64,000 nucleotides of DNA from IMG/VR virus record IMGVR_UViG_3300021288_000002, positions 1,934-65,933 of that record; one strand, written 5' to 3'. Made by a program: the position numbers and the translations under genes. Shown here in pieces: positions 17,084-46,683 of this stretch (position 1 is its first letter; the number at the start of each line of letters is the position of its first letter). The DNA comes from a virus (Duplodnaviria; Caudoviricetes). The notes beneath the pieces are model-generated. The model made no database searches, was not told where the DNA came from, and worked only from the letters and a program-made list of their open reading frames with translations.

Positions 17084-18463
17084 TTATTTTTCACTAATCT
17101 TTTCAAGAATACTATTACGAGTAATTGGTTTGTCATCTATCTCATCCAATCTTTTTTCAATGACATTCATACGAGATTCCATTTCCACAACTTCAGCGTC
17201 TTTTTCTTCGATTTGTTTTTCGAGCATGTTAATCTTTGCTTCCATCTCTCTGCGGACATCTGAAGTGTAAACTTTTACATCAGTATTTTCCAAACTTAAG
17301 TCAGGAATGGCAGCCATATATGCTTCTTTAATTTCCTTAACATCCAATCGAATGTAACTATCATCTGTTCTTAATGGGGATGTATGACCCTCAAGGATAG
17401 CACATATCCGAATGTTCCCACAATTCCGAGCGATTTGAGTGCTGAAGAATTTTCGGAGAGAATGAGCGTGAAATTTCGGTATTTTTTCAACTTCATTGTC
17501 AAAGTCCTCTTCCGCCAATTCACCATTGTTGATTTTCTCCTTGATGATGTTGATTCGATGTTCCCTCAACTTTTTGTTTTTCTTGTTGAAGAGATCGGAT
17601 ATGGTGTGTGTTGTTATCTGTCCTTTGAAATTTTTCCTCTGATTTCCAAACAATGCATCTTCTTTCGATAGTTCAAGTCCATATTGGGGCAGGTATTCGT
17701 TTTTGATTCTCCTTAAATTTTGCAAAATCAAGTTCGATGCCTCTCCATCTATAAATGTAATGCATTCTAAATCATATCTTTGGGTCTTGCTTGGATTAAA
17801 TTGCAATGTGCATATCATATCTGATGAGGCATTGTCAATGAATTCATTTACTGACACGAAATTATGATAATCTGATGTGCCTTTGATGAAGTCCCCAATG
17901 CTAAGGTCAAGAGCATCTTTGATTCTCAAACCGGATGCTCTCAAAGTGCTGATGAGGGATTGATGGGTCAATGTTGAATCTTGCATCACGAACCGAATGT
18001 CCTCTTTGGTGAGTGGATGCCATTGTTGTTTGTCTGCAGGTAACCTTTTCCAGTTAGGCAGCTCCACATGGTAATGTTGCAGGAAGATTGAAATCAAATC
18101 TAAGTTGTTGTTGATTGTGTTGTTACTGTTGCCTTTCTCCTTGCAATATTGAATGTGATTGTCGATGAATTGGCTAATGTATGAATCTGGTTTGTTGACA
18201 TCAAATTCAATGACTTCTTTTTCAATGATTTCCTCATTCTCATTATTGGTGGTTTTGATGATTTTTTCAATGACACGATTTTGTTCGGATTTGCAACGCT
18301 CAACTATCTCCGACAATTCAAGATCATTAGCAACTGAAAATTTCATCAATGCATATTTGTAATTTTCGTAACTTGCATCCGAGAGTGCAGGTCGGCTTCG
18401 GATGAAGTTGGTGAATAGTTTGTCTTCTGTTATGTGATAGTTTTTCATAGTAGAACCTCTCAA
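17084..18463 (-). CDS. tyrosine recombinase/integrase (canonical catalytic residues)
   Basis: SGLRIKD (R), SKT (K), HSLR (HxxR), LEGH, SY (Y). Confidence 0.9.
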   Translation of the reverse strand: MRGSTMKNYHITEDKLFTNFIRSRPALSDASYENYKYALMKFSVANDLELSEIVERCKSEQNRVIEKIIKTTNNENEEIIEKEVIEFDVNKPDSYISQFIDNHIQYCKEKGNSNNTINNNLDLISIFLQHYHVELPNWKRLPADKQQWHPLTKEDIRFVMQDSTLTHQSLISTLRASGLRIKDALDLSIGDFIKGTSDYHNFVSVNEFIDNASSDMICTLQFNPSKTQRYDLECITFIDGEASNLILQNLRRIKNEYLPQYGLELSKEDALFGNQRKNFKGQITTHTISDLFNKKNKKLREHRINIIKEKINNGELAEEDFDNEVEKIPKFHAHSLRKFFSTQIARNCGNIRICAILEGHTSPLRTDDSYIRLDVKEIKEAYMAAIPDLSLENTDVKVYTSDVRREMEAKINMLEKQIEEKDAEVVEMESRMNVIEKRLDEIDDKPITRNSILEKISEK

Positions 18464-18647
18464 TATATTATATATTGGAGCATTTATTTTAATTTTTTCA
18501 TAATGTTCGGTTAAAATAAGACATTTGGTGTGTTAATGTTTTTGTTCAACCGTACATTAGAAAAGAAAATAATACAATATAAAATGATTAGAATAACCAG
18601 CTCATAAACACTAAAAATAAATGTTCGCAACTATCAAAACGAACAAA

Positions 18648-18845
18648 TTATTTCAATAAAACCTTCTTATTTTCAACATCAATTTCAACAGTACCTGGTG
18701 AAATTTCAACATTCAAATTCTTAACCAGGACATCAAAATCATCAGGCACATTTTCAAGTAAGCATTTCAAGGTTTCCACATTCATAAATAATAATATGAA
18801 TAAACTATTATAAAAAAAGAGTATATAAAAAGTCACAGTCATCAT
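18648..18845 (-). CDS. small hypothetical protein (likely start ~18784, MNVETL)
   Basis: ORF track; plausible composition in the C-terminal 45 aa. Confidence 0.4.
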   Translation of the reverse strand: MMTVTFYILFFYNSLFILLFMNVETLKCLLENVPDDFDVLVKNLNVEISPGTVEIDVENKKVLLK

Positions 18846-19025
18846 TCACCCTACAAAGGAAAACATCCGAAAAAGACATTATTGTTAACCATCACCAAAT
18901 TACAAAAAAAGAATAATGTCCAAAAAAAGATAGTATCCTTTATTAAAATAACTGTGACTTCAATTAATATATTGATAACTACTAGTATAATACTCTTATG
19001 AGAGAGCATTTGGAAAGTAATATGT

Positions 19026-20063
19026 ATGTATAATAGCAGACTATTCCAAAAATTCTGTAAAGACAGAAATGTCAAAAAAAGTACAAAGAAAGGTTATGAA
19101 TCCGCATTAAAAAATTATACAAAGTTTCATAACTTAACGATTGAAGAACTAATAAAAGAAGCCCAAAAAGAAGAACAAGAAAAAATAATATTAAAAGACA
19201 GACAAATCAAAACGAGATTATTGAAATACAGAACATACTTATTCAACAGCAACAAATCCCCAAACACCATCAAAACATATTTCACCAAAATCAAAACATT
19301 CTACCAACACCACGAAATCGAAATACCAAAAATACCAGACGCCAAATATGATAAATTATATGAAACTAACTATATGGACTTACCTACCAAAGACCATATC
19401 AGAAAAGTATTGGAAATTGTAACCGTAGACCTACGCAGCATAATTCTTTTCATGAGCTCAAGTGGAACAGCCAAAGCCGAAACTTTAAGCCTTACCATAG
19501 AATCATTCATCCTTGCTACTCAAGAATACCACAATGGAGGAAGCATTAAAGAAATACTAGACACATTAAGCAAAAAAGACAATATAATACCAACATTTTA
19601 TTTGAAACGGATAAAAACAGACAAATATTATTACACTTTCTGTTCACCTGAAGCAGCATCTGAAATAGTGAAATATTTACAAGTGAGAGATGATCTAAAA
19701 TTATCTGATAAATTATTTGACTTCACACCATCAACATTATTGACCAGGTTCCAGGAAATTAATGACCAGATGAACTGGGGATTCAAAGGTAACTACAGAT
19801 TCTTCAGAAGTCATACACTACGGAAATTTCATGCAAGTAATATAGGATTACCTGCTGAATACATTGACAGTCTGCAAGGCCGTAGTAAAAATGAAATACA
19901 CGAAACATATATTAAAACCAATCCTGAAAAGTTAAAGGAAATCTATAGAACAGCAATGCATAATGTAATGATATACAATAATGAAAAGAATGAAATTATT
20001 AATCAAGAATTTACAATAGTAATCAATGTATTTTTGAGCGGTAAGGAGTATAATATTTTTTAA
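19026..20063 (+). CDS. tyrosine recombinase, atypical active site; candidate invertase of the fibre shufflon
   Basis: SAM-like N-terminus; SGTAKAE (Arg-I position is Ala), RIKT, HTLR, LQGR, TY. Confidence 0.85.
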   Translation: MYNSRLFQKFCKDRNVKKSTKKGYESALKNYTKFHNLTIEELIKEAQKEEQEKIILKDRQIKTRLLKYRTYLFNSNKSPNTIKTYFTKIKTFYQHHEIEIPKIPDAKYDKLYETNYMDLPTKDHIRKVLEIVTVDLRSIILFMSSSGTAKAETLSLTIESFILATQEYHNGGSIKEILDTLSKKDNIIPTFYLKRIKTDKYYYTFCSPEAASEIVKYLQVRDDLKLSDKLFDFTPSTLLTRFQEINDQMNWGFKGNYRFFRSHTLRKFHASNIGLPAEYIDSLQGRSKNEIHETYIKTNPEKLKEIYRTAMHNVMIYNNEKNEIINQEFTIVINVFLSGKEYNIF

Positions 20064-20072
20064 AAAAAAATA

Positions 20073-20107
20073 TGGCCAACCCATGACAAAATGTCACAAG
20101 TTGGCCA
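20073..20107 (+). terminator. hairpin downstream of recombinase
   Basis: TGGCCAAC...GTTGGCCA enclosing TGAC/GTCA. Confidence 0.4.
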
Positions 20108-20323
20108 GGGCCTTATTAAAATACTCTTTTATTTTTTTACTCAAACTATGAAGATAAAAAAATACATGGATAACAAATATTTAAATTAACGTAGGAAAAT
20201 TGATTTATTCTAATTTTTTTAGTTTTACATCCAATATTTTCACATTCTCTGCTACTTCAACTAGATGTTCTTTAACTTCAAAAGTAAATCATTGTAAAAA
20301 ACAAAAGAGTTATTTTATAAGAA

Positions 20324-20515
20324 TTATTGTACGTATTCTTCATAAACAAAATTGTTACTGTCAGGAATATCATGTTCATGTCTTAAAGCATTAACTTCAA
20401 TTTGTGCTTCAAGAACTTCATCAGATAATCCTTCTTTTTCATATTTTTTATCAACAATTCTTTGCTTATTTTTTATTTGAATAATTTTAAGAAATCTTTT
20501 TGCTTTATCCATCAT
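20324..20515 (-). CDS. hypothetical protein downstream of endolysin
   Basis: ORF coupled to the endolysin. Confidence 0.55.
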   Translation of the reverse strand: MMDKAKRFLKIIQIKNKQRIVDKKYEKEGLSDEVLEAQIEVNALRHEHDIPDSNNFVYEEYVQ

Positions 20516-20517
20516 AA

Positions 20518-21519
20518 TTACCCTCTTTTAACAACTAAAACAGATTTTTGACTAATTCCATTAATGTAACTTCTAAACTCTGAAGTTGATCTATCTTCAA
20601 CATATCCACAGTAACAAGAACCACATCCACTAGACCCTAAACTGTTTTGTACTTTCACATTACTACCAGAGACACTATTAACTACTTCATAATGTCCCCA
20701 TTTATTCCTGTAAAGATTATGAATGATACAATCTTTATCAGATGATTTAAGTATTTTATTTAGTTTAGTCCATCCAATGTCTGAGAAGTTATACCATTTG
20801 CAAGTTAATTTTACTCCAGTTTTTTTTGATGCTTTGGCAATTGCAGTTTCTAAACCTTGATGGTCAGTACCACTACTGGTGGTTCCTGCCCAGGAAGCTA
20901 ATGTTGATTGTTTAATAACTTTACCCGTAAGATTCCTGATAACCTCTTGCATACTGTGAGGACCACAATCTACTGAGTTATTTTGTCCTCTGTTGTCACA
21001 TCCACTTTTAGTTGCATGACCATATTTCTTATTAGTTGCCTTTTTTGTACTATTTGATGTAGATGTACTTGTTACTTTTTTAGTAACTTCACTGGTTTTA
21101 AATCCACATGTGTTAGGTAATCTTCCTTCTTCATCATAAAATACAATGATTTTACTGAATGAATAAATGAATACTCTTTGTTTGATTTTTTTACCGAAAC
21201 CTGAAAGATAATTAGGTAATCTTCTGTTCTCTTTTTTTGACATGAAATTACTTAATTTTTTAGCTAATGATTGATATGATGTTTTGGTTAATTTCAAATC
21301 AACGTTTTCACCTGTTGGGTTAGGTGCAAGATTACATTTGAGGGAGGTTACACTTTTACCTGGATTTTGAACTGCTTTACTGATTAAATATGCTGCATCT
21401 TGAATAGTGTATGTTTCATTATCAACAGTTACTTTTCCAGGAAGTTTAGTTTCTTTTTCAACATATGTTTTAATTTTCTTTGATATTTTTACAATAGTTT
21501 TAAATTTTATTTCTGTCAT
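20518..21519 (-). CDS. endolysin: pseudomurein-binding repeats + C39-like cysteine peptidase (PeiR-like)
   Basis: PMBR-like ...RRLPNY / GRLPN repeats; QNNSVDCGPHS...GHYEVV catalytic motifs. Confidence 0.8.
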   Translation of the reverse strand: MTEIKFKTIVKISKKIKTYVEKETKLPGKVTVDNETYTIQDAAYLISKAVQNPGKSVTSLKCNLAPNPTGENVDLKLTKTSYQSLAKKLSNFMSKKENRRLPNYLSGFGKKIKQRVFIYSFSKIIVFYDEEGRLPNTCGFKTSEVTKKVTSTSTSNSTKKATNKKYGHATKSGCDNRGQNNSVDCGPHSMQEVIRNLTGKVIKQSTLASWAGTTSSGTDHQGLETAIAKASKKTGVKLTCKWYNFSDIGWTKLNKILKSSDKDCIIHNLYRNKWGHYEVVNSVSGSNVKVQNSLGSSGCGSCYCGYVEDRSTSEFRSYINGISQKSVLVVKRG

Positions 21520-21563
21520 GATCTTTTACCTCAAAAAGATATTTTATTAAAAAAATGATTGTA

Positions 21564-21887
21564 TATTCAACAAATAGTAATAGTATTCATATTAGAGGAA
21601 CTGGATTCAAAGAAGTGATAAATTCCAATCAATCTTACAAATATGATGATAAACTGGTGGATTTTTATATCCATTTTGGAAACAACGTAACAGCAACTAC
21701 TTCTTGGAAAGATTTTGGGAAAGTGATACCTCAACATATATTCCCAAAAAATACTATTCAATTTATGGAGCAATTTGGAGCAATAATTCTAAGAATTAAA
21801 TCTGATGGTATTCTACAATATAGAAGCATAACTGGAGGTAATGTTGATGCTTCAAGTCTTGTTGCCCATACCACTTGGATCATTTAA
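21564..21887 (+). other. silent tail-fibre tip cassette C1
   Basis: Begins at TATTCAACAAATA (YSTNSNSIHIRGTGFK); 324 nt in frame to stop; in-frame ATG at 21555. Confidence 0.85.
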
Positions 21888-21889
21888 TG

Positions 21890-22240
21890 TATTCAACAAA
21901 TACTTCCAGTATACAGATTAATGGGAAAGGGTGGAAAACCTATTATCATAAGTCTGCAAGTAATGGTTGGTATGTAACTGTCTTATATAATGAAACAACT
22001 GCCAAATGTATCGTTAATGACCCTGCAAATGTTTCATTCACTACAAGCGAAACAAATTATCTTACTGATTGTTTAACTGACTCTTGGATTACACCACAAG
22101 AACCAGTTGCAAATAATTTTACTTTTACAAGGAGATTGATAATTAGACCGAGTTCTGCAACAATTTACAAACAAGGAACTGCGAGTGGGACTGGAACTAT
22201 TTATACTCAATTCAGTTGGGAACACAGAGGCCTCCCTTAA
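21890..22240 (+). other. silent tail-fibre tip cassette C2
   Basis: TATTCAACAAATA (YSTNTSSIQINGKGWK); 351 nt; 2 nt after the C1 stop. Confidence 0.85.
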
Positions 22241-22242
22241 AT

Positions 22243-22596
22243 TATTCAACAAATAATACCAATATTCAAATTAAAGTAAGTGGGTTGAAATTAATTAAAG
22301 ATACTTCCCAATGGAGCGATGTAACTTATGAACTCTATGTGGATGAATCCACTCATAGTGCAACACTCAAAATGGGTATAGCAAATAAAAACATTGCTCC
22401 TGGAATGAGCAATTACGAAATGACTGGTTGGATACCATCAGATTACCGACCAAAATCAAACAAGTACAGTCAAGGTTATCGTGGAAACAATAACCTATTC
22501 TATGTTTGGGGTAATGGAAATATCGGTGTATCCAATCTTACATCATCAACACAGACTGGGGCGTATCTTTCTTGTCAGATTGACTGGAATTATTAA
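22243..22596 (+). other. silent tail-fibre tip cassette C3
   Basis: TATTCAACAAATA (YSTNNTNIQIKVSGLK); 354 nt; closest to the expressed tip (VTYxLYVDESTH, IPxxYRPK). Confidence 0.9.
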
Positions 22597-22601
22597 ATAC
22601 G

Positions 22602-22943
22602 TATTCAACAAAGACCCACAACACATCTATAAACGTTACTGGTTGGAAAAGAGTAGTGAATCAAGCTGATGGGAAAATACAAGTATACTGTGATGGTGAA
22701 ACTTGTCAATTTAGCTGCCAAGGAACCCAAACCATCCGTGCAAATGGAACAACTACTTTAGGCACAATTCCCTCACAGTACAGTCCTCAATATATTATAA
22801 CTATCCCAGTTCATTTTCAAGCAAATAATATATTATGCAGGATTACAGAAACTGGAGTGGTGGAAGTTCATAATAATTCCAGTGCCACAAACGTCCTGAT
22901 GAGAGTACTAGTAACTTATTCCTTGAAAAGTAAAATAATCTAA
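22602..22943 (+). other. silent tail-fibre tip cassette C4
   Basis: TATTCAACAAAGA (YSTKTHNTSINVTGWK), in frame with ORF 22656-22943; 342 nt. Confidence 0.85.
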
Positions 22944-22962
22944 TTAAGAGAGGAGTAAATTA

Positions 22963-23310
22963 TTAAATCGCAAATTCCACTGTTCCATATAATGTTATGC
23001 CCCCACTACTTGAATAGGTAGTACGAGATATGATGAGTTTAATTGAACCATCAGTACTAATCCGTATAAACCCATAATGCCCTCCATTATCTCCTATACT
23101 GGAAGTGGGGACCGCCACTATATTTTGTGGCCTATAATTACTATTAAGTGTACCTAATTCATATTCTGTCCCCACGTTTCCACTATTACTTTGTTGATTG
23201 CAACGAACAGAAACCATTCGTCCATTTGATTTTGCAGTAAATCTAGCAGTGGTTTGAACTGTTTTCCATCCTCCCACCTTAATTTGCATATTGGTACTAT
23301 TTGTTGAATA
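22963..23310 (-). other. silent tail-fibre tip cassette C5
   Basis: TATTCAACAAATA on the minus strand at 23310-23298 (YSTNSTNMQIKVGGWK); 348 nt; 6 nt after the fibre stop. Confidence 0.85.
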
Positions 23311-23316
23311 TATGAG

Positions 23317-24198
23317 TTAATAATGCCATTCGTGAATGAAATTGAATGAGTAATTTGTTACTGTGTTCCCTAAATTTGTTATTCCAATCTTCCCATCATT
23401 ATTCACATAATTTAAGAACTGGTTATTTCTCATAATCTCAGCAATAGAAGTATTCTTTGGTCGGTACTTTGTAGGTATGACAAAATCAGAATAAATAAAA
23501 CTATGTCCGGATACGATAGTTACACCAGTTCTAACTGCTCTTATTTGTGCAGTATGGGTGGATTCATCAACATACAAAGCATATGTAACATTTGATTGGA
23601 TTAATTTAAATCCATCTACTTTGATTTGGAGATTATTGTTATTTGTTGAAAACATGACTAAACCCCATGTGTCTGCGGTATAAGTCAATGAAAAAGTACC
23701 ATTAACACCAGTTGTTCCAGACCGCCAGACTTCATTATCTTTCAGGACAGGAACATTAACCCCCACTACAGGGTTACCCTGTTGGTTAGTAACTTTAACA
23801 GTAATGGTAACATCTGTATCTATATCCACATTATATTTACTTGCAGTAATTTGGTAATTGTATAAATCAGTAATCTGATTTTTCGTATGATTATGGCTCA
23901 ATGGTGCATAATTAGATAATTGACTAACCTTTGCAAAATCAGATGATAAGAATCCTGATAAAGTTGTTGCATTAATTGGAGTGTTTTCATTAGTATTTGC
24001 CAGTATTGCTTGTAATCTTGCTTCTGTGAAGTATGTTTCATCAATTACTGCTAATTGTGCTTGCATTTCCTCTAATGTTTCCGCATCTGCTACACTAATG
24101 TTTCCTATTTTATTTCCACTGTCACTGTATACGGTTATTTCTGCTCCGATGATTTTACCGTCATCTTCACTGAATATTCTTGTATTAAAATCAACCAT
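23317..24198 (-). CDS. tail fibre / receptor-binding protein with exchangeable C-terminal tip (expressed cassette C0 = 23317-23652)
   Basis: Fibre-like SHNH motif, Ig-like segment, then FSTNNNNLQIKVDGFK encoded over TTTTCAACAAATA (23652-23640). Confidence 0.85.
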   Translation of the reverse strand: MVDFNTRIFSEDDGKIIGAEITVYSDSGNKIGNISVADAETLEEMQAQLAVIDETYFTEARLQAILANTNENTPINATTLSGFLSSDFAKVSQLSNYAPLSHNHTKNQITDLYNYQITASKYNVDIDTDVTITVKVTNQQGNPVVGVNVPVLKDNEVWRSGTTGVNGTFSLTYTADTWGLVMFSTNNNNLQIKVDGFKLIQSNVTYALYVDESTHTAQIRAVRTGVTIVSGHSFIYSDFVIPTKYRPKNTSIAEIMRNNQFLNYVNNDGKIGITNLGNTVTNYSFNFIHEWHY

Positions 24199-24204
24199 AA
24201 AATA

Positions 24205-26631
24205 TCACACCTTGTATTCTATCCAGTTTTGTTTAATAGTTACTTGTTTATCCGTATTTTCTCCACGTGTGCAAGTGTAACCCAAAGCAATTCCAACGTC
24301 CTCAAGGTTTGGAGTGTATACCACTTCAAGTGTATCGTTTGCATTTAATATAGTGGAGTAATCATCATCACTAACAATATCAAATATTAATAATCCCTTA
24401 GTATAATCTACTGTGAAATCAGTATCCTCAATTAATTCCCTTTCAAGGTCAGTATCCTTATTCAATATTACACTACGTAATGGATCTACTGGTGACACAC
24501 GTAAAGGTACTTGTCTTGTCTCCAGGATTTTATCTTCCACTATGAAATCCTGTTTAAAATAATCAATAACTAGTGGATTATTAACATATTTACCTGTAGT
24601 GTTATTGTATACTCTGCCTACCTCTGATTGTACTAGGTCTTGTACGAATACTGGATTATATGTGAATGTAATGCTTCCTGCAGGTAATTCTAGTATAAGG
24701 TCTTCAGCTAAAACAATAGTGTCATCAGTATAATCTACAATGTAATCATACCATTCACCAGGGTTGAATACTCCTTCATCTCCTCTAGGTTGAATTTGAC
24801 ATTCAAGTATTGGATAAGCAGGACTATTCTTTAAAGTGAATGGAGTGTAAACTTTATTTTCTTCTTCATCTAATGTCCAGAAACTTAAACCATGAACAGT
24901 TTCCTCTTCATCCTCCCATGGCAAGACATATACTCTTTGTTCACGGAGTAATTCTAAAGCTGTTGGATTATCAATAAGATACTGGTATCTTACAGTCAAA
25001 TCATCATCTGTGATTTTATCCAAATCAAGGCCATCAATCCAGGTGAATTCATCTAATTCTTCAGCGGTGATTATTTGGAAATGGTCCACTACTTGTTTTT
25101 CCTGGATGATTTCAATCTTACAATCAGTAGATGGATCAATATTCACTGGTGCAAAAATACGGCCCCAATGACTTGCTCCAAGCATAGGTGAAACTTTCGG
25201 ATAATAGAAATGAGTACGAACATACATTTGTTTAGGTAACACATTAGTGAAGTTGACTGTAATGGATTGTATTGCTGGACTTTTAGTTTCATCAGTTGTC
25301 CACATTTTCACACGTATGAATAATGTTCTTGGATAATTACCTTCACTATCCTGACTGAATGCTCTTTCATGATTAACCAGGTCATACCATGTTCGACCAT
25401 CACTTGACACTTGATATTGTAATTTACCTGGATAACTTGCAGCGTCTCCACTATCAGTACATGATAATATTACTTTACTGAATGGATTGGTATGTATTGG
25501 TTTTAAGTAAAGATAATGGTCTCCAGTTACGTAAGTGGTTGAGTCTTGGCGTATGTTTAATTGGAATGCGAAATCGGATGGTGTTAAACGGCCGAGATAG
25601 TATTCTACTTTTAAATCGTTACGTCCGTATCTTTCCCATGTACGGCCATTATTGTTACTGAAGAATGCATCTCCTTGCATGTATTTGCTGTTGGCACAGT
25701 TTCGGCCCCATCCTCCAATTCTTGGACAATGACTCCAATTTGAGAGAGGGGACATGAATATTAATGCATATGATTCTCCTTCTTCTAATCTTGGAGGTTG
25801 TGGGAATGCAATGGATACGAATCCTGGTTCAATTTTTGATGGGTCAAAAGTAGTTTCCGCTATAGGAGTATAAGGGTTACCATCAGGCCATGATATGTTT
25901 TCATTACCTCCAGCTGGAGTGTTCTTTTTAGTACGGTTATTCCAGTTCATTTTTGGTACGGTAACTGTTTTGGTTTTCCATAATTGGACTGTTAAAGCAC
26001 TCCCCCAACTTCCCCAAACAGTACCATTATTTGCTAAGTGAATGCTAACTGCTTCTAGTGTTCCACCTTTCCCCTCTGGTACGGTGAATGTTTGTGCTCT
26101 GCAGACTGAAGGAATCTCTGATAATTTAGGGTCTTTAATCCAATTAGGCCTAACCTGGTAAGTTTCATTTTTATCATAACCAACATACCAATGAGTGTTA
26201 ATCTGATTGTTTACTGTCCAATTCTTAACTGTCTGGTCCAATTCTCCAGGAGTATTAGGTAGGACTGCCTGGTCAACAATAGTTCCAGTATCTGTATCAA
26301 CATAATGTGCAATAACTGCACTTGATTTATCCCTGTCAATTAAACTATCATCATTAAAGTCAATGGTAACTGATTTATTAGTATCAGTATCAAAGATTAT
26401 TTCATTATTAGTAGTTTCCATAAAACCATAACTGACTTTAGGGTCAATTGGTATTGGGTTGAATCTTTTACGTACTGCTGGAGGACTTAAATATCCTAAT
26501 TCTTCTAATTGTTGTTTCAGGTATTCATCGTTTTGGCAGATTTGCCTGAATAATTCCACAGTAGGATACATTTGTTCACTGAAACTTTGTATCCTGTTTA
26601 AATTCCTATATTTAGGTTCACAATTAACCAT
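24205..26631 (-). CDS. large tail/baseplate-associated structural protein
   Basis: 808 aa, beta-rich, lies in the fibre cluster. Confidence 0.6.
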   Translation of the reverse strand: MVNCEPKYRNLNRIQSFSEQMYPTVELFRQICQNDEYLKQQLEELGYLSPPAVRKRFNPIPIDPKVSYGFMETTNNEIIFDTDTNKSVTIDFNDDSLIDRDKSSAVIAHYVDTDTGTIVDQAVLPNTPGELDQTVKNWTVNNQINTHWYVGYDKNETYQVRPNWIKDPKLSEIPSVCRAQTFTVPEGKGGTLEAVSIHLANNGTVWGSWGSALTVQLWKTKTVTVPKMNWNNRTKKNTPAGGNENISWPDGNPYTPIAETTFDPSKIEPGFVSIAFPQPPRLEEGESYALIFMSPLSNWSHCPRIGGWGRNCANSKYMQGDAFFSNNNGRTWERYGRNDLKVEYYLGRLTPSDFAFQLNIRQDSTTYVTGDHYLYLKPIHTNPFSKVILSCTDSGDAASYPGKLQYQVSSDGRTWYDLVNHERAFSQDSEGNYPRTLFIRVKMWTTDETKSPAIQSITVNFTNVLPKQMYVRTHFYYPKVSPMLGASHWGRIFAPVNIDPSTDCKIEIIQEKQVVDHFQIITAEELDEFTWIDGLDLDKITDDDLTVRYQYLIDNPTALELLREQRVYVLPWEDEEETVHGLSFWTLDEEENKVYTPFTLKNSPAYPILECQIQPRGDEGVFNPGEWYDYIVDYTDDTIVLAEDLILELPAGSITFTYNPVFVQDLVQSEVGRVYNNTTGKYVNNPLVIDYFKQDFIVEDKILETRQVPLRVSPVDPLRSVILNKDTDLERELIEDTDFTVDYTKGLLIFDIVSDDDYSTILNANDTLEVVYTPNLEDVGIALGYTCTRGENTDKQVTIKQNWIEYKV

Positions 26632-26650
26632 CTATATACACCTTACCATT

Positions 26651-27313
26651 TTATTTTGTTTCTATGATAATATTCTCAAGATTAGGGTTACTATTACGTG
26701 TAGTATGAATATACAAGTTTTTAGTACTGAGACTATAATAATAAGAACCGATAACAGATTCTACTTCATCAATACTACTTACACTTCTAAGACCACAATT
26801 AGTATCTTTCTCAGTTACACCAACAACAAGACTTGGCTCTGCAATCCAATAAGTGTAATCCTTATCAGCGACTTTATTGAAGTCTTTACGGATACTTCCT
26901 GTTGTTAATTCAAAAGTATACTCTACATCAACAGTACCAATACTATCCTCCAGGAATGTACTGGTCATTTTCTCATAGATATCATGACTAATTAATATAT
27001 CATCATTCGCTACACCTATTTCACATGTGCCTAATACTTCACCTGCTTCAAAGGTAGCTTTTAGAATGATTTTCTTATTTGTTAGATCAACACTTGATTC
27101 AACTTGTTTTTTCACAGTTAAATTTCCAAGGTTTACATCAGATTTTTTAGGCCTGCTATTACTGGAACCTAACACAATATATTGTATTGGGTCAAAATGT
27201 TGATTAACAGCACGATTCATAAAAAAAGATTCGCCTAATAGGGTTATAATATTATTCCCAGTTAGGAGTATCTTATCTTTCTGTTTAAACACATAACTTC
27301 CATGTATTTTCAT
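26651..27313 (-). CDS. baseplate/tail-fibre attachment protein
   Basis: NIITLLG...IVLGSS...CEIGV pattern of fibre N-terminal (gpH-like) domains. Confidence 0.55.
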   Translation of the reverse strand: MKIHGSYVFKQKDKILLTGNNIITLLGESFFMNRAVNQHFDPIQYIVLGSSNSRPKKSDVNLGNLTVKKQVESSVDLTNKKIILKATFEAGEVLGTCEIGVANDDILISHDIYEKMTSTFLEDSIGTVDVEYTFELTTGSIRKDFNKVADKDYTYWIAEPSLVVGVTEKDTNCGLRSVSSIDEVESVIGSYYYSLSTKNLYIHTTRNSNPNLENIIIETK

Positions 27314-27573
27314 AATAAATTCACATCCTTACCATCCACTTTTAAACAAGTATGGATTTCCAGGTCATTTTTTTCACTAAATTCAGTAGTTGATAAATTA
27401 ACATGAATCCTTGAGGATAAAGGCATTAATTTTTGTAATCTTTTCTGCAAACTATCACTGGATTCCGTTTGAATATTACTGGGAATCTGTGAGGGGTTGA
27501 AACTGATTTCATAATTATTAGGTGTCCAATCAGGTTCATGATGGATTATTTTACAATTCGTATTCCTTGGCAT
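27310..27573 (-). CDS. hypothetical protein (baseplate region)
   Basis: Coupled ORF. Confidence 0.45.
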   Translation of the reverse strand: MPRNTNCKIIHHEPDWTPNNYEISFNPSQIPSNIQTESSDSLQKRLQKLMPLSSRIHVNLSTTEFSEKNDLEIHTCLKVDGKDVNLL

Positions 27574-27741: not shown

Positions 27742-28398
27742 ATTTATAAGTATGAATATTTCTTTGGAGAGGGTGTTGGTGACTTATATATAAAAGCTAT
27801 ATGTGGGTTATCAGCAGTAACATACAGTATTGAAGACTGTTTAAGATATGATAATGCTTCATCAGACAATACTTCTAAATACAGTAGTGTGAATTTGAAC
27901 AGTTTAAGTTGGGATACAGACCATTATGTCGCTACTCGTAGTTTAACTGGTAGTTCTGCAAGTACATATTACAGTCAAATCTATATTGAAGAAGATTTAC
28001 CCTCTGATTATGAAATTAGCATGGATATATGGGCAAGTAATGTAGCAGATATTCAAAGTGGTATCTGTATCAGTAATGCTCACCCACAGACTTATTCAGG
28101 CACTAATCAAGCGATGTTAGTGTATCAAGGGCAACAGAAAGGTTTATTGTATCGTGTGAATGGTAGTTTGTCAAGATGGGATAATACCCCAGCGATTGCA
28201 AGAGAAACTTGGTTCACATTTACTTTAAGAGTTCAAGGAACAAGTGTAATTGCCATAATCACCGACACCAATAACGATGAAGTGTATTCCACCACACAAA
28301 CACTTTCAAGTATTAGTTCTTGGCATAAGTGGAATATCCAGTTAGGGAACAAAGCACACTACTTACATTGGAAAAACTTCAAAATCAAAGCATTATAA
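27742..28398 (+). other. start-less alternative C-terminal (lectin-like) cassette for the large fibre/adhesin
   Basis: Open frame extends upstream of 27889 without ATG: GEGVGDLYI...SIEDCLRYDNASS...LSWDTDHY aligns to GKGTGNLYI...SVADCVRYDSASS...MSWSTDHY of 28393-31620; stop codons overlap. Confidence 0.75.
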
Positions 28399-31300
28399 TC
28401 GTTTGACTTTAATCTGTTTGATTTGTATACTCACATTCCAAGAACTCATTAATCTTGCTTTTGTGAAATTAGCGACTGTTTGAGTCCAATTTCCAAAAAC
28501 AGTACCATCTAATGTTTCAATTGTTCCAGTATAAGTTGAATCATTTTTAATAAGGGTATACTTATACCATTGATTGTTAGTCAATGTTGTAGAATTTCTG
28601 TTGGAATTATATCCTCCACCATTGTTAAATATAACTCCAGTTCCACTTGACACTCCATACAATCCAATTAAATGAGTATCATCATTACAAATACTTAATC
28701 CCATATTACGATTTGATGCGTTGATTAAAGCACTAAATTCAAAATCATCTGAACCTATTTCGGCAAAATCAATGAATCTCTTGCTTTGAGAAGTGGAACT
28801 GATATTATAATGGTCTGTACTCCAAGACATACTTAATCCACTCGGCATAGTATAATCACTAACCCTATTACTGCTTGCACTATCATACCGTACACAATCA
28901 GCAACGGATATTTCTGATACAATTATACGATCACTAGAAAAAGATTGAATATATAAATTCCCCGTACCTTTTCCTAAGTAAGATACAGTAGCCACACCAG
29001 AACTATTAGTATCTGCAGTTAAAGTTTCAACCAATGAATCATCACCGGTTTTACGAACCTCAAATGTGACAGTTTCCCCTGCAATTGCTACAGGGGTTGT
29101 TCCTGACATTAATTGAGCTGTAAGTGTTGCAGATTCCTCATCATATGCTGAGAGAATATCCTTGTCAGAGGTCAATTCTATTGCATCAAAGCTTGGAGCA
29201 TCTGAGACAGTTACAGTTACATTACCACTAGTTACTCCAGTATATGTGGTTGTTGCATCAAAGACCACATGATATGTGAATGTGCCTTCAGCAGTTGAGG
29301 TTATTGTCTTGCTGAATGTACCATCATTAGCAGTTGTTATAGTGTCAATTACAGATTGGCCTTGATATAATTTTACAGAGGCATTCGCTACACCTGTTCC
29401 ATTATAGAGTAATGCTCCTGATAATATATAGGAATCTCCTGTAATGACACTTGATTTACTTGTAAGTAAACTGATTGTTGGAGTTCTTTTAGTGATTGTA
29501 ACATTCACATTACTTGATGTTGCTGATTCATAAGTTGCATTCCCATTATAAACTGCGTGGAATGATTTTGATTCAACAGTTTCCGCAGTTATGGTTTTAC
29601 TGAATGTACCATTGGAAAGTGTTGTTACTGTATCGAGTAATGTTTCCCCATCGTAGATTTCAATACTTGCGGAACCAATATTGGTGCTAGCTTGTTTTAA
29701 GGTACCTGTTAATGTGATTGTTTCACCAAGTACATAACTTGCCTTGTTGGATGAGAATGTGATTGTAACTGGTTTTTTGTTAACAGTTATGTTCACATTG
29801 GCCATACTGCTGCGGTAATCTTCGTCTCCGTCGAATACTGCTCTGATGGTTACATTGCCACTTGTTTCTACGGTTACATTTTTGCTGAATGTTCCGTTGT
29901 TTAGTGTTGTCACTGTATCTACCAATTCATTATTAACATAAATTTTTATACTTTTACCTGATAATGTGGTTTCTTCATCGTCAGTTAATAATCCAGTTAT
30001 CTGTACTGTTTCACCAATAGTGTAAACGGATTTATCAGTGTTTAATGTGAGATATGTGAGTGTTTTGTTTGCTCCTTCACTTATCACTACATATAATGGA
30101 TTATTGTTTTTATTGTTGTTGATCCAGTTATGGTTTGTTATGATTTCACTACTGGTATCATGAGTTAATGTTAAATCCTGTAAGTTTAATCTTTGATTCT
30201 GTGCGATTTTAAAGAATTTGTAATTTGTAGTATTTTCAATTATAGCATTACCACATCCAAGTACTGTAGAAGATGTATTAACTGACAAAGGATTGTTAAT
30301 AGTGTATGTTCCACTTGTCAAGACGATTAGGTTTTGTTCCCCATTAACCATAGTTAATGCTTTGTTGATTGTTCGGAATGGAGTGTTGATTGTTGTTCCA
30401 TCATTGGTATCATCTCCTGTTGATGGGTTTACATACCAATCTGCACTGTTACATCCTCTAACTGTAACGGTTAATTCTTCAGTTGCAAAAAGGTCTTGTC
30501 CGATATATGCTTCGAATCTGAAGATGTTTGGTTCATCATCACTGATTAAATCACTTGTTACTGTGTAAGTACTGCTTGTATAATCAGTGGTTAATGGTGT
30601 TTCTGCATCGTTTAGGTATATTGTTACATTATAATCTCCAGTTAGTTTTTCAGCCAGCATGTTCAGGTATTGGAAATTGAATATTACTGATTGGTTTTTT
30701 ACTGGTAATAATGTGTTTGCAGATACGAAGAAGAATCTTCCTAGGTCTGGTGTTAAGTTACATAATTTGTCTTTATGTTCCCATGGCATGGGAGTCCAGT
30801 CACCGACAAGGCCTGTTTCTTCATCATATGGATGCATTGTTTCATCAAACATCTTGAGCAGGTATTCTTCTCTGTTTATCATGTCGCTGAAGATGCCGTA
30901 TATTTTCCATATTTCCAGGACAGGCAATGGAGTGTCATGCACTCTAAGAACATAATTGATGATACGATTCATGTAATGATAATCATCTTCAGTTAACCTG
31001 TTATTGTATGTAGGTTCAGTGTTGGCATAGTCTTCTGTTGGGATGTATGTTTTTCTTGGTATGCCGTTTAATGCTCCGATTTCATCCAAGCTAGTGTCAT
31101 GGTCATAAATGTCACCTGTTAGTTCATCGTTTTCGGGAAATCCTTTTTTGATTATGATTTCATCATATGATTCTGCGATTATGTGAAATGTGTCTTCGGG
31201 TATGATAGGAATTTCAATTTCACTATCATCTCCTTGATTTTCCTCCTCATTATCTTCACTATTATCATCCACAATCGTATTATCTTCACTGCTATCATAA

Positions 31301-31620
31301 GAATAAATAAAAGAACTGACATTATCCTCTTCCAAGTATTCTTCCATGTAGATTAATGTATCATTTTTATAACATTTCACACTTTTCAACTGAGGATAAT
31401 TCACAACAAAATTAATAACATAATCATAAGGCACACTCTGCTCCTTCCAAATACAACAACGCTTCCTTAATCTAAAACTATCAGAAACATCACTAATACT
31501 TTGAAAAATCCCCTTAAAAACATTATTAGTAACACTCTGAGATTTAAAGAAATTACTTGTCTCCGACTTATCAAAAAAATGAGGAAACATCTTGATTAAA
31601 CTTTGCATACTATTTTTCAT
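28393..31620 (-). CDS. baseplate-anchored adhesin/tail fibre: baseplate-like N-terminus, beta-helix-start motif, ~4 Ig-like repeats, ConA/LamG-like tip
   Basis: WYVNPSTGDDTNDG..PFRTINKAL; repeated ~95-aa Ig-like units (K.SY..GET..LTG.L...TVTT..NGTFS...AV..G...Y). Confidence 0.75.
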   Translation of the reverse strand: MKNSMQSLIKMFPHFFDKSETSNFFKSQSVTNNVFKGIFQSISDVSDSFRLRKRCCIWKEQSVPYDYVINFVVNYPQLKSVKCYKNDTLIYMEEYLEEDNVSSFIYSYDSSEDNTIVDDNSEDNEEENQGDDSEIEIPIIPEDTFHIIAESYDEIIIKKGFPENDELTGDIYDHDTSLDEIGALNGIPRKTYIPTEDYANTEPTYNNRLTEDDYHYMNRIINYVLRVHDTPLPVLEIWKIYGIFSDMINREEYLLKMFDETMHPYDEETGLVGDWTPMPWEHKDKLCNLTPDLGRFFFVSANTLLPVKNQSVIFNFQYLNMLAEKLTGDYNVTIYLNDAETPLTTDYTSSTYTVTSDLISDDEPNIFRFEAYIGQDLFATEELTVTVRGCNSADWYVNPSTGDDTNDGTTINTPFRTINKALTMVNGEQNLIVLTSGTYTINNPLSVNTSSTVLGCGNAIIENTTNYKFFKIAQNQRLNLQDLTLTHDTSSEIITNHNWINNNKNNNPLYVVISEGANKTLTYLTLNTDKSVYTIGETVQITGLLTDDEETTLSGKSIKIYVNNELVDTVTTLNNGTFSKNVTVETSGNVTIRAVFDGDEDYRSSMANVNITVNKKPVTITFSSNKASYVLGETITLTGTLKQASTNIGSASIEIYDGETLLDTVTTLSNGTFSKTITAETVESKSFHAVYNGNATYESATSSNVNVTITKRTPTISLLTSKSSVITGDSYILSGALLYNGTGVANASVKLYQGQSVIDTITTANDGTFSKTITSTAEGTFTYHVVFDATTTYTGVTSGNVTVTVSDAPSFDAIELTSDKDILSAYDEESATLTAQLMSGTTPVAIAGETVTFEVRKTGDDSLVETLTADTNSSGVATVSYLGKGTGNLYIQSFSSDRIIVSEISVADCVRYDSASSNRVSDYTMPSGLSMSWSTDHYNISSTSQSKRFIDFAEIGSDDFEFSALINASNRNMGLSICNDDTHLIGLYGVSSGTGVIFNNGGGYNSNRNSTTLTNNQWYKYTLIKNDSTYTGTIETLDGTVFGNWTQTVANFTKARLMSSWNVSIQIKQIKVKRL

Positions 31621-43341: not shown

Positions 43342-43891
43342 ATTTTTTCAAAGATTCTAAACGAGCATATATACGATTACCAAGACTATTACTTGTATCA
43401 TAATTAATTGTAGTGTCCATTTCATGTATACTGGAAATGTTACCTTTACTGTTTTCATGATTAGTATCATTGAAAGCATAGAGTAACATGTCAACAATCA
43501 ATGGATCAATTTTAGATGTGACAAATTCTTGAGAAACACAATGCACATATTCAATAACCAACATACCATTGTGGCCATGGTTAAGATAAAAGATACCACT
43601 ATTTTCATCAAGAACATAATCATCACTTGTTAATTCAACATTGTTGATTTTAAAAGAATTAACAGCAGTTACAGGGTAAATGTTTGTTTCAAACAGATCA
43701 CTTTTAAAATGTCTGAGTATTTCTTTTCGAGTCACCGGTTTAATTGCCAAACCAGTCAACTCAATAATCTCATCAACTTTCAAATCAATCCAATCTTGCA
43801 AAACAGAATCATCAGTTAATAATGATTCATCCACGCCTTGTAACTTTAATTTGTTTTTAAGGTCAGTAGGAGTAATTAAATCCAAAGTCAA
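43307..43891 (-). CDS. head-tail adaptor
   Basis: LITPTDLK.KLKL...; synteny after the capsid gene. Confidence 0.65.
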   Translation of the reverse strand: MTLDLITPTDLKNKLKLQGVDESLLTDDSVLQDWIDLKVDEIIELTGLAIKPVTRKEILRHFKSDLFETNIYPVTAVNSFKINNVELTSDDYVLDENSGIFYLNHGHNGMLVIEYVHCVSQEFVTSKIDPLIVDMLLYAFNDTNHENSKGNISSIHEMDTTINYDTSNSLGNRIYARLESLKKYGACSSKVKWL

Positions 43892-44016
43892 ATATAATTC
43901 CTCCTTTTTATAATAATAAATTAAAAATTTAAAAATGTAGAAAAGAAAAAGAAATATTTTTCAATCTATCTACATCTTATTTTTTTTTAACTTTCTGAAT
44001 CCTGTTGGGAAGTATT

Positions 44017-44220
44017 TTATTGAGCATCTTCCAATGCTTTGAGACGTGCAAGGATAGTGCCTGCAGTTTCTTCATCACCAATAGCTTCTTCTAATGCTTC
44101 AACTTTAGTTGCAATAGTGGAATCACCAGCAACAGCAGCATCAATTTCATCAGAAAGAATATTAAATCTAGCTTTTTTATCAGTTTTTTCACTATCAGTT
44201 AAATCATTAAATTTAACCAT
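44017..44220 (-). CDS. small virion-associated protein
   Basis: ORF after the MCP with GGAAGTG RBS. Confidence 0.5.
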   Translation of the reverse strand: MVKFNDLTDSEKTDKKARFNILSDEIDAAVAGDSTIATKVEALEEAIGDEETAGTILARLKALEDAQ

Positions 44221-44263
44221 ATGGCTTCACTTCCTTTAAAAAAAATATTAAAAAGCAAAATCT

Positions 44264-45346
44264 TTATGAGTTAGATTTTGCATTTTTAGTGTAAGGTACA
44301 ACAATAGTGTCCTGGTCATAGTGGATTTTAGCATCCGCTTTAGCAAGACCAACAACTTTGTAACCTAATTCATCAATATCGAATTGGTTTAAGACATCCA
44401 TGTCTCTCATCATACCAAATACAACGTTGGAAGGTTCACCGATGAAAGCATATCTTAATTTGTCCACAGTAGCACCATTACCTTTTGGTAAACCAGTAGT
44501 GGAATCAAATTTCATACTGTCCCATCCGTGACGGGTGTTACGGAGGACATTGTCCTGTTTAACTTCCATACCCATAATCATAGGGATTTTACCATCTTTA
44601 AGAATGGTGTCACCATAATCAGATTCACGAGTTGCAATGTCCCTTACAACTTTACTGTACATTGCAGGAGGAACAATGATGTTAGCATTTTTCATGTTAC
44701 CATCTTGTTCAACATAAAGTTCAGCAGCATTTAATAAACCTTCCAATGCATTATTGGAATAGGTTAATGGTGCAAAACCAGCTGCGTCATTTGTGGCATC
44801 TGCAGCAATAGCTTTTAACTGTGCAAGTAATCCATTAGTCATGGTGAAACCAGTACCTTCACCAGTTTGAGTAGCTACACTAGTGTCGGCGTAGATACCG
44901 TATCTTTCCATAGCAGGACCCATTTCAGTACCAAGAAGACCAATCCATTTAGATAAGAAATCTTCACCTTCAATGTTTTCATCAATGAAGTTCATAGGAA
45001 TAATAGTTTTAGCTTGTAAAGGTTGAGCTAATAACTGTTTCCTTTTCATAATAGGTGCAGTTTCATTACTGGTTAAACCAGTACTTGCACCGGTGGAAGC
45101 GTTTCTTTGAGCATCGAAATCTAAGTCAATACCAAGGTCATCAATATCATGTTGTAATGATCTCATTTGGATTACACGAGATTGTTCTAAGAGTACTGGT
45201 TCATCAGTTACTCTTGTGAAGAAATCTTCAAAAGTTGGTTCAGCCCAACCAGGGTTAAGATCACCAGATGCACTGAATGCTGCATCAGCAAATTTCATAT
45301 TAAAACTGTCTTGATTTAAAATTTTATCTTCAATAGTTGTTGACAT
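44264..45346 (-). CDS. major capsid protein (HK97 fold)
   Basis: G.LNP....FF..V.DEPVLLE; size and synteny. Confidence 0.85.
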   Translation of the reverse strand: MSTTIEDKILNQDSFNMKFADAAFSASGDLNPGWAEPTFEDFFTRVTDEPVLLEQSRVIQMRSLQHDIDDLGIDLDFDAQRNASTGASTGLTSNETAPIMKRKQLLAQPLQAKTIIPMNFIDENIEGEDFLSKWIGLLGTEMGPAMERYGIYADTSVATQTGEGTGFTMTNGLLAQLKAIAADATNDAAGFAPLTYSNNALEGLLNAAELYVEQDGNMKNANIIVPPAMYSKVVRDIATRESDYGDTILKDGKIPMIMGMEVKQDNVLRNTRHGWDSMKFDSTTGLPKGNGATVDKLRYAFIGEPSNVVFGMMRDMDVLNQFDIDELGYKVVGLAKADAKIHYDQDTIVVPYTKNAKSNS

Positions 45347-45483
45347 AAAACATTAACTCCTTTTTCAGTTAATTTACATAAAAAAATGGTTTAAAATCCA
45401 CATTTCTCCTCTTAAAGAAGATGGAGAATTGTAAATATTAAAAAAAATACTTTGATTTTAAAAAAATTAAAAAAAAATAACTT

Positions 45484-46683
45484 TTAGATATATTTTAAGT
45501 TTCTACCAAAAGAATCACGCTTTGGTTTAATAGTTGATTCTTTTTTCTTTTTCTGAGATTCTTGGAATTTTTTGAATTTAGATGGAATAGACTTTTCATT
45601 CAATTGTTTTACAATTTCATCATGAATTTTTTGATTCAATGATTTTTCATCAATCACTTCATCTTCAGTTTCTTTCTCATCTTCTTCAACAATTTCCTCT
45701 TCAGTTTCTTTGGTGGTTTCCATTGAGTCTGTTTCAGGTTCTTTTATACCATCTTCAGATTTAACTTCTTCCTCATTGGTTTCTTCAGTAGTAGATTCAG
45801 TTTCAATGACTTCCTCTTCTTCCTCTTCTTCAGTTAAATCTTTTTCCTCAACAGTTTCCCCATCTTCTTGAACTTCATTAGTGGCCTTGATTTCAGCAAG
45901 AATCTTATCAGCAACTTTTTCAGCAGCTTTAGTTCCTGCAGCTTCAGCAACACCTTCAATTTTAGGTTCAATATTTTCAAGAATACGAGGTTCAATTTCA
46001 GCGCCAAATTCATTCATCATATTTTTAACTAAATCTGTAATTTGAGCAACTTGTTCATCAGAAAAACCAGCAATAGCTTTCTCATCTTTCACTGGGTCTT
46101 CTGGAACTTCCTCAATTTTTTCTTCTTTATTTTCCATATTCTCACCATCATGTATCGCATGATAACATGCACCAGTCAAACAATTGCTGGCTACTAAATT
46201 CAGAGATTTATATTCAACAGTTCCATAAGTATCCCAATTCATCGGAATATAAGTGAGAGTGATCTCTTTCAAATCATAATCCGTAATTAGGATACCATCA
46301 GGAGTTCGTTGTTTGCGTGGGAATCCAGATATGCTGAAACCAAAGTTCATTCCTATGTCTAGGCGTTCTTTGATTCCACTTGCAAACTCTTTGAGTACAC
46401 GAGCTTTTATCCAAAGCTCTTTATCTTTTACCCATGCTTCAACAATAGCTCCAATTCCACCTTCATAATGCCTATTATGGTCTCTGAATAGGTTGAGACC
46501 AGGAGCTTGTTGTGCTAATGATTCAAGTACTTCTTGTGATACTATCTCATTAGCATAATCTTTGTTGGTGGTTGAAGCAACTCCAATTATTGTTAAAGTA
46601 CCATCATCATTTGATTCATAGGATTTAGCATCTAAGGGCAATCCATAGACTTTGTATGATGTGGTGGTTGTTGCAGTTGACAT
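45484..46683 (-). CDS. prohead protease with acidic scaffold-like C-terminus
   Basis: IIGVAST...D...EIV...DH...GFSISG...LKEITL; Glu-rich tail. Confidence 0.85.
   Translation of the reverse strand: MSTATTTTSYKVYGLPLDAKSYESNDDGTLTIIGVASTTNKDYANEIVSQEVLESLAQQAPGLNLFRDHNRHYEGGIGAIVEAWVKDKELWIKARVLKEFASGIKERLDIGMNFGFSISGFPRKQRTPDGILITDYDLKEITLTYIPMNWDTYGTVEYKSLNLVASNCLTGACYHAIHDGENMENKEEKIEEVPEDPVKDEKAIAGFSDEQVAQITDLVKNMMNEFGAEIEPRILENIEPKIEGVAEAAGTKAAEKVADKILAEIKATNEVQEDGETVEEKDLTEEEEEEEVIETESTTEETNEEEVKSEDGIKEPETDSMETTKETEEEIVEEDEKETEDEVIDEKSLNQKIHDEIVKQLNEKSIPSKFKKFQESQKKKKESTIKPKRDSFGRNLKYI

Follow-up and report, generated by a model that had tools for sequence, protein, structure and literature searches.

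We analysed a 64,000-nucleotide (nt) stretch of DNA, here called the window, which comprises bases 1934-65933 of a linear, 65.9-kb IMG/VR virus record (IMGVR_UViG_3300021288_000002; CheckV completeness 74%), and focused on a fibre gene and the array of gene fragments beside it. The full fibre (receptor-binding protein, RBP) gene occupies positions 23317-24198 on the minus strand, and its product has 293 amino acids (aa). An earlier reading of the letters alone, the sequence-only reading, had reported six copies of a short site at 21564, 21890, 22243 and 22602 on the plus strand and at 23310 and 23652 on the minus strand, one of them in frame inside the fibre gene. A search with the pattern TWTTCAACAAAKA returned exactly these six matches in 64 kb, when 0.08 were expected from shuffled sequences and none of 100 shuffles reached six. 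The sites are 13 bp long, have the form T[A/T]TTCAACAAA[T/G]A, and bound the cassettes in both orientations, four on the plus and two on the minus strand; a shufflon has at least three such sites. The copy within the fibre gene, hereafter the expression site, begins with TTT in all seven array-bearing loci tabulated, and residues F183 and S184, at its start, are invariant in 38 homologues of the fibre protein.

The 9-bp core TTCAACAAA occurs 10 times in the window compared with 3.4 expected, and six of the ten occurrences are at the array. All six site copies use TCA, which accounts for 21% of the Ser codons in the genome, and ACA, which accounts for 37% of the Thr codons. Unlike the core, the codons for the invariant Gly14 and Ile10 vary synonymously among the six tips, and the core is therefore conserved at the DNA level beyond the needs of the protein. 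When 30 sites from five genomes were compared, conservation of 90% or more was confined to the 13 bp; there is none in the left flank, and in the right flank it goes no further than the coding lead-in requires.

Each of the five sites outside the fibre gene opens an in-frame cassette of 107-117 aa (C1 to C5; Table 1). Together with E6, the tip that is currently expressed, these align at 18-25% identity, with S2, T3, I10, G14, K16 and P61 invariant. Four of the sites lie 2-6 nt beyond the preceding stop codon, as had been noticed from the letters. Cassettes C3 and C4 had been described as having no ATG of their own, which holds for both. C4, like C5, is without any in-frame start ahead of its site; for C3 there is a TTG alone, nine codons upstream. 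In seven loci with such arrays, an in-frame start ahead of the site is missing from 24 of the 32 silent cassettes, and in many a stop codon is found 0-6 codons upstream of it. The locus thus combines a 5' part that stays constant with a choice of 3' parts, most of which are without starts of their own, as in a shufflon.

Table 1. Features of the fibre locus and its surroundings (positions in the window).
Feature	Position	Strand	Remarks
459-aa tyrosine recombinase, probable integrase or alternative candidate invertase	17084-18463	-	Canonical R...HxxR...H...Y motifs; C-terminal coiled-coil tail
Rec345, 345-aa tyrosine recombinase, candidate invertase	19026-20063	+	phrog_1 integrase, E 1.6e-13
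Pei lysin, pseudomurein endoisopeptidase-like	20518-21519	-	Pseudomurein-binding repeat (PMBR) and C39-like peptidase domain
Silent cassette C1, 107 aa	21564-21887	+	Site at 21564; distal end of array
Silent cassette C2, 116 aa	21890-22240	+	Site at 21890; most divergent tip
Silent cassette C3, 117 aa	22243-22596	+	Site at 22243
Silent cassette C4, 113 aa	22602-22943	+	Site TATTCAACAAAGA; tail-to-tail with C5
Silent cassette C5, 115 aa	22963-23310	-	Site at 23298-23310; fibre-gene orientation; starts 6 nt past the E6 stop
Tip E6, currently expressed, 111 aa and stop	23317-23652	-	Matches TP901-1 RBP head; predicted local distance difference test score (pLDDT) above 90
Expression site TTTTCAACAAATA	23640-23652	-	In frame at F183-S184-T185-N186 of the fibre protein
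Fibre gene constant part, aa 1-182	23653-24198	-	N-terminal attachment region and immunoglobulin (Ig)-like (Big_1/invasin-type) domain, aa 110-190

To gain insight into the nature of the exchanged part, a structure model of the fibre was built with 38 homologues, and C2 was modelled separately (pLDDT 89.8). In the fibre model, pLDDT exceeds 90 over aa 200-293, and the E6 part aligns with the RBP heads of lactococcal phages (TP901-1, Z score 10.3, root-mean-square deviation 2.6 Å over 91 aa; p2, Z score 9.6). Residues 110-190 are modelled as an Ig domain of the invasin/intimin type (Z scores 9.0-9.5). The C2 model matches the RBP heads of TP901-1 and bIL170 with Z scores of 8.5-8.7. Because the E6 and C2 models match the same heads, the unit exchanged is, on the evidence of the models, the entire receptor-binding head. 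A fold common to the tips had been anticipated, and it is borne out by the expressed tip and by the most divergent one, the two of the six that were modelled.

We compared the locus with relatives sharing the tail module, drawn from IMG/VR (L002-L004), ENA/Logan (L006-L011, L015, L045-L050) and the Joint Genome Institute (JGI; L042, L043). L042 and L043 aside, sufficiently long contigs have the fibre gene followed by the cassette array, the Pei lysin and a 345-aa tyrosine recombinase, except that in L003 the recombinase precedes Pei. Arrays of this type hold 4-8 tips or sites. Read from the fibre gene outward, the orientations in eight arrays are ++---- (window), +----, +---, +-----, +-------, +++-, ++++-- and +++++-. 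There is a single tail-to-tail junction in each, and it lies between C5 and C4 in the four loci that have both types (window, L011, L045 and L006). Since the sites are at the 5' ends of the cassettes, inversion between opposed sites would preserve both the +...+ -...- form and the single tail-to-tail junction.

Comparing the order of cassettes in related genomes had been suggested as a check, and the order does differ. In L011 the constant part is followed by C3, E6, C5 and inverted C4; in L045 by Ta, Tb, Tc, E6, C5 and inverted C4; and in L006 by C4, inverted C5 and further cassettes. The C3 block of L011 (6549-6916) corresponds to window 22245-22612 in inverted form at 91% identity, and L011 6905-7974 corresponds to window 23653-22588; both blocks run from core to core. 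In L045, where the sequence upstream of the site matches the window at 97% identity, the homology blocks end at window positions 23650, 22602 and 21574, all on cores. In the comparison of the window with L011, L045 and L006, every homology breakpoint falls on a core. The same left flank (the C3 end) joins C4 in the window and E6 in L011, and the same distal flank joins C1 in the window and C4 in L045. Hence, as expected of a shufflon, alternative arrangements related by inversion at the sites are found between related genomes. As judged from these alignments, the window, L011 and L045 are each one expression-site flip from an order in which the constant part is followed by C4, inverted C5 and inverted E6.

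The sites also carry marks that follow one or the other side of the junction. The TTT always stays with the fibre across arrangements, and the G of AAG moves with the C4-type tip, which is silent in the window, L011 and L045 and expressed in L006. This distribution points to a crossover inside TTCAACAAA, the 9 bp in which the sequence-only reading had placed it. Five genomes (the window, L006, L011, L015 and L045) have TTCAACAAA as their core, whereas L002 and L004 have TTCAGCAA and all four sites of L003 have TTCAGCGAA. It is uniform within each genome and differs between genomes, with the GCA/GCG difference being synonymous; by this comparison, site cores evolve in concert within genomes. 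A separate observation concerns L015 and L006, the flanks of which are 96-98% identical, yet which have almost no cassettes in common. To judge from this pair, the cassettes of an array are replaced far more rapidly than the remaining genome changes. Premature stops are also present in some silent cassettes of relatives, a C5-type cassette being cut to 75 aa (L011 7251) and Tc to 68 aa (L047 1966), and silent copies can therefore decay.

If the silent cassettes are alternative heads, they might be found joined to a fibre elsewhere. Among 142 fibre homologues, there are fusions of a fibre N-terminal part (N-part) to each of the silent tip types of the window. The C3-type tip is the expressed tip in L011/P0009 (89% aa and 91% nt identity), the C4-type tip (68% identity) is expressed in L006 (P0037) and in P0015, and the C2-, C5- and C1-type tips are fused to the N-part in P0118, P0036 and P0104 (61%, 54% and 53% identity, respectively). 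In many fibre pairs the N-parts are 100% identical over 182 aa and the tips about 20% identical; that such pairs are common points to recent swaps. In a collection of 5.8 billion protein sequences, we found no fusion of the N-part of this strain to its own C1-C5, the closest being the fusions of relatives. An exact junction pattern search of IMG/VR gave no match, and a profile scan with the fibre alignment returned nothing beyond three contigs already known.

The cassette order in relatives, the breakpoints, the concerted evolution of the sites, the natural fusions and the common fold make it very likely that the locus is a shufflon, as had been proposed from the letters; this support comes from the comparison of relatives, not from reads. 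The locus would constitute a multiple-inversion host-range switch of a tailed Methanobrevibacter virus. In the fibre gene, a constant part comprising a baseplate-attachment region and an Ig-like domain is followed by the in-frame 13-bp site and a receptor-binding head of about 110 aa, and downstream there are five more heads, promoterless and mostly start-less, each behind the same site. A tyrosine recombinase, most likely Rec345, would recombine the expression site with any inverted site inside TTCAACAAA; the DNA between the sites would flip, fusing a new head in frame and parking the old head in the array. The heads would be expected to bind different receptors. The present order (E6 and C5, followed by C4, C3, C2 and C1 inverted) is one flip from an order with C4 expressed. 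The sequence-only reading had a single inversion at any plus-strand site giving six variants, which fits the orientation of C1-C4. It does not fit C5, which is in direct orientation to the expression site and therefore needs two inversions in order to be expressed.

Whether the array also switches within a population was approached through five animal-faeces runs that contain the stretch, and the Logan contigs of four of these (X1, X2, X4 and X5) were compared with the window. All carry the window arrangement, and no strand-changing joint was found in them. Since contigs drop minority forms, a single arrangement in four runs is weak evidence against switching within a population. In X4 one contig ends at 22601, one base before the site at 22602, and 22438-22600 is almost uncovered; this end may reflect a graph branch at the site and proves nothing. 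In all four runs the contigs break at 22408-22440, because the 33-nt word there also occurs in a relative that is 2-9 times more abundant and has a C3-like cassette.

We next consider the enzyme. No serine recombinase (PF00239) was detected in the 65.9-kb record, control genomes being positive, and the candidates are the two tyrosine recombinases listed in Table 1. Rec345 is 41% identical to the integrase of MSTV1 and 30% to that of psiM100, and, of the catalytic signature R-K-HxxR-[H/W]-Y of tyrosine recombinases, its K197, H263, R266 and Y295 are aligned and invariant. The motif LQGR is a family trait common to the Rec345 clade and MSTV1, and the catalytic H/W position is occupied by Arg in Rec345 and by Lys in MSTV1. 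The clade does not have the coiled-coil C-terminal tail of related integrases and ends in a conserved QEFTIVINVFLSGKEYNIF. A sequence search of Rec345 against PDB chains gave chance matches alone, and tblastn against 50,697 phage records, a collection that may not include the Rin prophages discussed below, matched Methanobacteriales viruses exclusively.

Adjacency, co-occurrence and co-loss suggest that Rec345 is probably the invertase. Its homologues accompany arrays in ten viruses and are 69-91% identical in all array-bearing relatives, and in L003 the stop codon of the gene abuts the last site. In L042 (JGI contig Ga0247611_10009038, 7471-10071), window 19040-19947, most of the Rec345 gene, is missing between flanks that match the window at 97% identity, and of the array there remain one full tip and two stumps, 26 aa and 8 aa long. 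A single recombinase, of the integrase type, is present in MSTV1, the annotated genome of which has no opposite-strand cassettes beside the tail genes; vir080 has a single recombinase match and no opposite-strand cassettes in 18 kb around the fibre gene. Several observations weigh against this assignment. The first catalytic Arg (Arg-I) is replaced by Lys in the whole Rec345 clade (GTAKAE, where the MSTV1 integrase has GCARRE), Pfam detects no catalytic domain in Rec345, and a second recombinase is always present too. A 58% homologue is found in G003, the record of which is 60% complete and has no array, and in G001 and G002, two viruses with a second type of array (see below), the homologue lies about 36 kb from the array. 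It could be argued that inversion is carried out by the 459-aa protein, with its canonical motifs, or by a host recombinase, and that Rec345 is an integrase like its MSTV1 and psiM100 relatives; in G001 and G002 a recombinase of about 400 aa is indeed nearer the array (about 8 kb) than the Rec345 homologue. We consider this unlikely. The second recombinase changes in type and length (396, 441, 451 and 459 aa) among array-bearing relatives, whereas Rec345 is retained, and L042 has kept its homologue of the 459-aa gene, yet has lost the Rec345 gene and the array. Moreover, the recombinases of about 400 aa have the length and C-terminal tail of the MSTV1 integrase, and the array-free viruses examined showed this type alone. 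Module exchange between integrases is suggested by the 459-aa protein and the second recombinase of L004 (396 aa, 18490-19680): their cores differ, yet their C-terminal tails (ESRMNVIEKRLDEIDDKP...ILE[KR]ISEK) are almost the same.

With Rec345 as the favoured invertase, other explanations of the array itself have to be weighed. The array may be real and have been shuffled in the past but now be static, so that the differences between relatives are rare evolutionary events and not the outcome of a programmed, high-frequency switch. The single arrangement in the four runs, the Lys in place of Arg-I and the divergence of the shared cassettes would all be in keeping with this; the cassettes shared by rearranged relatives are 81-91% identical, that is, they differ by 9-19%, and the documented flips could therefore be old and not frequent. 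We nevertheless judge a static array improbable, given six intact open cassettes with six sites identical in the core, a recombinase gene that is intact and conserved at 58-91% identity across its clade, the decayed array of the relative that is without the recombinase (L042), and the identical N-parts with unrelated tips, which point to recent swaps. It is much less probable still that homologous recombination, or non-reciprocal gene conversion from silent copies of the pilE/pilS kind, accounts for the exchange of tips. Silent, start-less cassettes with a conserved lead-in do resemble donor cassettes, but the exchanges are reciprocal, with the displaced tip staying in the array in the opposite orientation. 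Junction identity extends over just 9-13 bp with breakpoints exact at the core, and the +...+ -...- rule holds in all eight arrays of this type. Equally remote is a set of independent small genes, encoding paralogous head proteins or chaperones that are separately expressed. An ATG lies just upstream of C1 and C2, with a TAATG overlap between the two, and separate translation of both is possible, which counts against the shufflon. However, the distal-cassette ATG is ATA in L006 and L015, three-quarters of the silent cassettes in the seven loci are start-less, many of them with a closely preceding stop, and every cassette type is fused to a fibre in some genome. A diversity-generating retroelement was dropped from consideration: differences between the tips extend over their full length, and neither a reverse transcriptase nor a template repeat was noticed, no specific search for these having been made.

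The closest counterpart of the proposed shufflon is the Rin shufflon of Bifidobacterium prophages, for which the evidence is likewise chiefly a comparison of related prophages (Mavrich et al., 2018; PMC6109161). There too, a tyrosine recombinase adjoins the array, a short asymmetric site precedes each cassette (11 bp in Rin, 13 bp in the window), one site lies inside the gene with a second, direct site right after its 3' end, and a constant N-part is combined with variable C-termini (95-100 aa in Rin) that have the TP901-1 RBP head fold (PMC6109161). The two differ in host, archaeal here and an actinobacterium in Rin, and in site sequence; the recombinase here belongs to a Methanobacteriales-virus integrase family with Lys at Arg-I, and arrays reach up to eight cassettes, or 10 sites in the second array type. 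The R64/IncI shufflon (Rci, sfx and pilV) is similar in its multiple inversion by a tyrosine recombinase, in short sites in both orientations at cassette boundaries, in sequence conserved on one side of the site, and in a constant N-terminus with selectable adhesin C-termini. The asymmetric sfx sites of R64 block deletion. In R64 the target is the tip of a conjugative pilus, whereas here it is a virus fibre, and a direct relation to Rci was not found in a review of the tyrosine recombinases of archaea (PMC8371274). Min of p15B, Gin of Mu and Cin of P1 also swap tail-fibre C-termini by inversion, Min with six crossover sites, but these are serine invertases with 26-bp sites and an enhancer, a class not found here.

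Among archaeal viruses, the haloarchaeal myovirus phiCh1 has two convergent genes, clusters of longer repeats and a recombinase gene inside the invertible segment; the present system instead combines a cassette array with single short sites, six to ten in number. In phiCh1, a tailed virus, the tyrosine recombinase Int1 inverts DNA at gp34/gp36 and thereby exchanges fibre C-termini of different adhesion specificity (cited in PMC8651126 and PMC10791045). The sequence-only reading knew of no such system in methanogen viruses, and a full-text literature search that did not cover the main catalogue (Medvedeva et al., 2023, Nat Microbiol 8:2170) found no description of one; the MSTV1 paper mentions no inversion system. 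Since the fibre switching of phiCh1 and the Rin architecture are already known, the system would be new for methanogen viruses, not new in kind. The shufflon principle, familiar in bacteria and their phages, would with it reach these viruses, beyond the simpler switch of phiCh1. Very few methanogen viruses have been isolated, and their choice of host is little understood. If the proposal is correct, six heads, and elsewhere up to ten, would explain the extreme mosaicism of fibre genes in ruminant metagenomes, and one provirus is predicted to release particles of several host ranges. The heads would also provide a defined set for finding receptors on the pseudomurein cell surface, and a small archaeal recombinase with a 13-bp target is a possible genetic tool.

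A different array is found in three complete viruses of 80-87 kb (G001, G002 and G004) that have a Rec345 homologue at 67-70% identity. Here the sites are GT[G/A]AAAGATA and the cassettes about 148 aa. In L019 (1093-5977) there are ten sites, all but one of them on the same strand, and a 421-aa protein is the one to which the array is attached. The arrays of G001 (43587-47673, at least six sites on one strand and at least two on the other) and G002 (at about 79300-83300) were located by protein search, and in G004 the Rec345 homologue is 2 kb from the array. An inverted-repeat search in L018 and L020-L022 returned AT-rich noise alone. The lead-in DNA of the second array type (AAAGATAACAATAAC) resembles that of the window (ACAAATAACAATAAT), and the two site types may therefore share ancestry. 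We lean, somewhat less firmly than for Rec345 itself, towards the view that an integrase-derived invertase clade, with Lys for Arg-I and without the tail, drives head shufflons in two or more lineages of Methanobrevibacter viruses, one with 13-bp sites and heads of about 110 aa, the other with 10-bp sites, as many as ten of them, and heads of about 148 aa. If so, no shufflon would have been described in archaeal viruses before, and it would be a main route of host-range change for rumen and gut methanogen viruses.

The minus strand carries almost all long genes of the window, and the lysin gene sits between the Rec345 gene and the cassette array. A lysin with PMBR and a C39-like domain is a hallmark of Methanobacteriales viruses and thus indicates a host of that order. 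A megablast search of window 19000-27400 against the 50,697 phage records gave no match. The 808-aa tail protein encoded at 24205-26631 has relatives at 37-46% identity in Methanobrevibacter genomes assembled from ruminant guts, and close relatives of the virus come from bovine and other animal gut metagenomes. On the strength of the lysin type, the tail-protein relatives and the gut source of the viral relatives, the host is most likely Methanobrevibacter. Further along the window, a start-less frame at 27742-28395 on the plus strand aligns at 26% identity (E 6e-12) with the C-terminal 195 aa or so of a convergent, 1075-aa fibre-like protein encoded at 28396-31620 on the minus strand. The two stop codons almost abut, and TTATATAT alone is common to both at the homology boundary; this pair may represent another tip switch, with two states, or the decayed form of such a switch.

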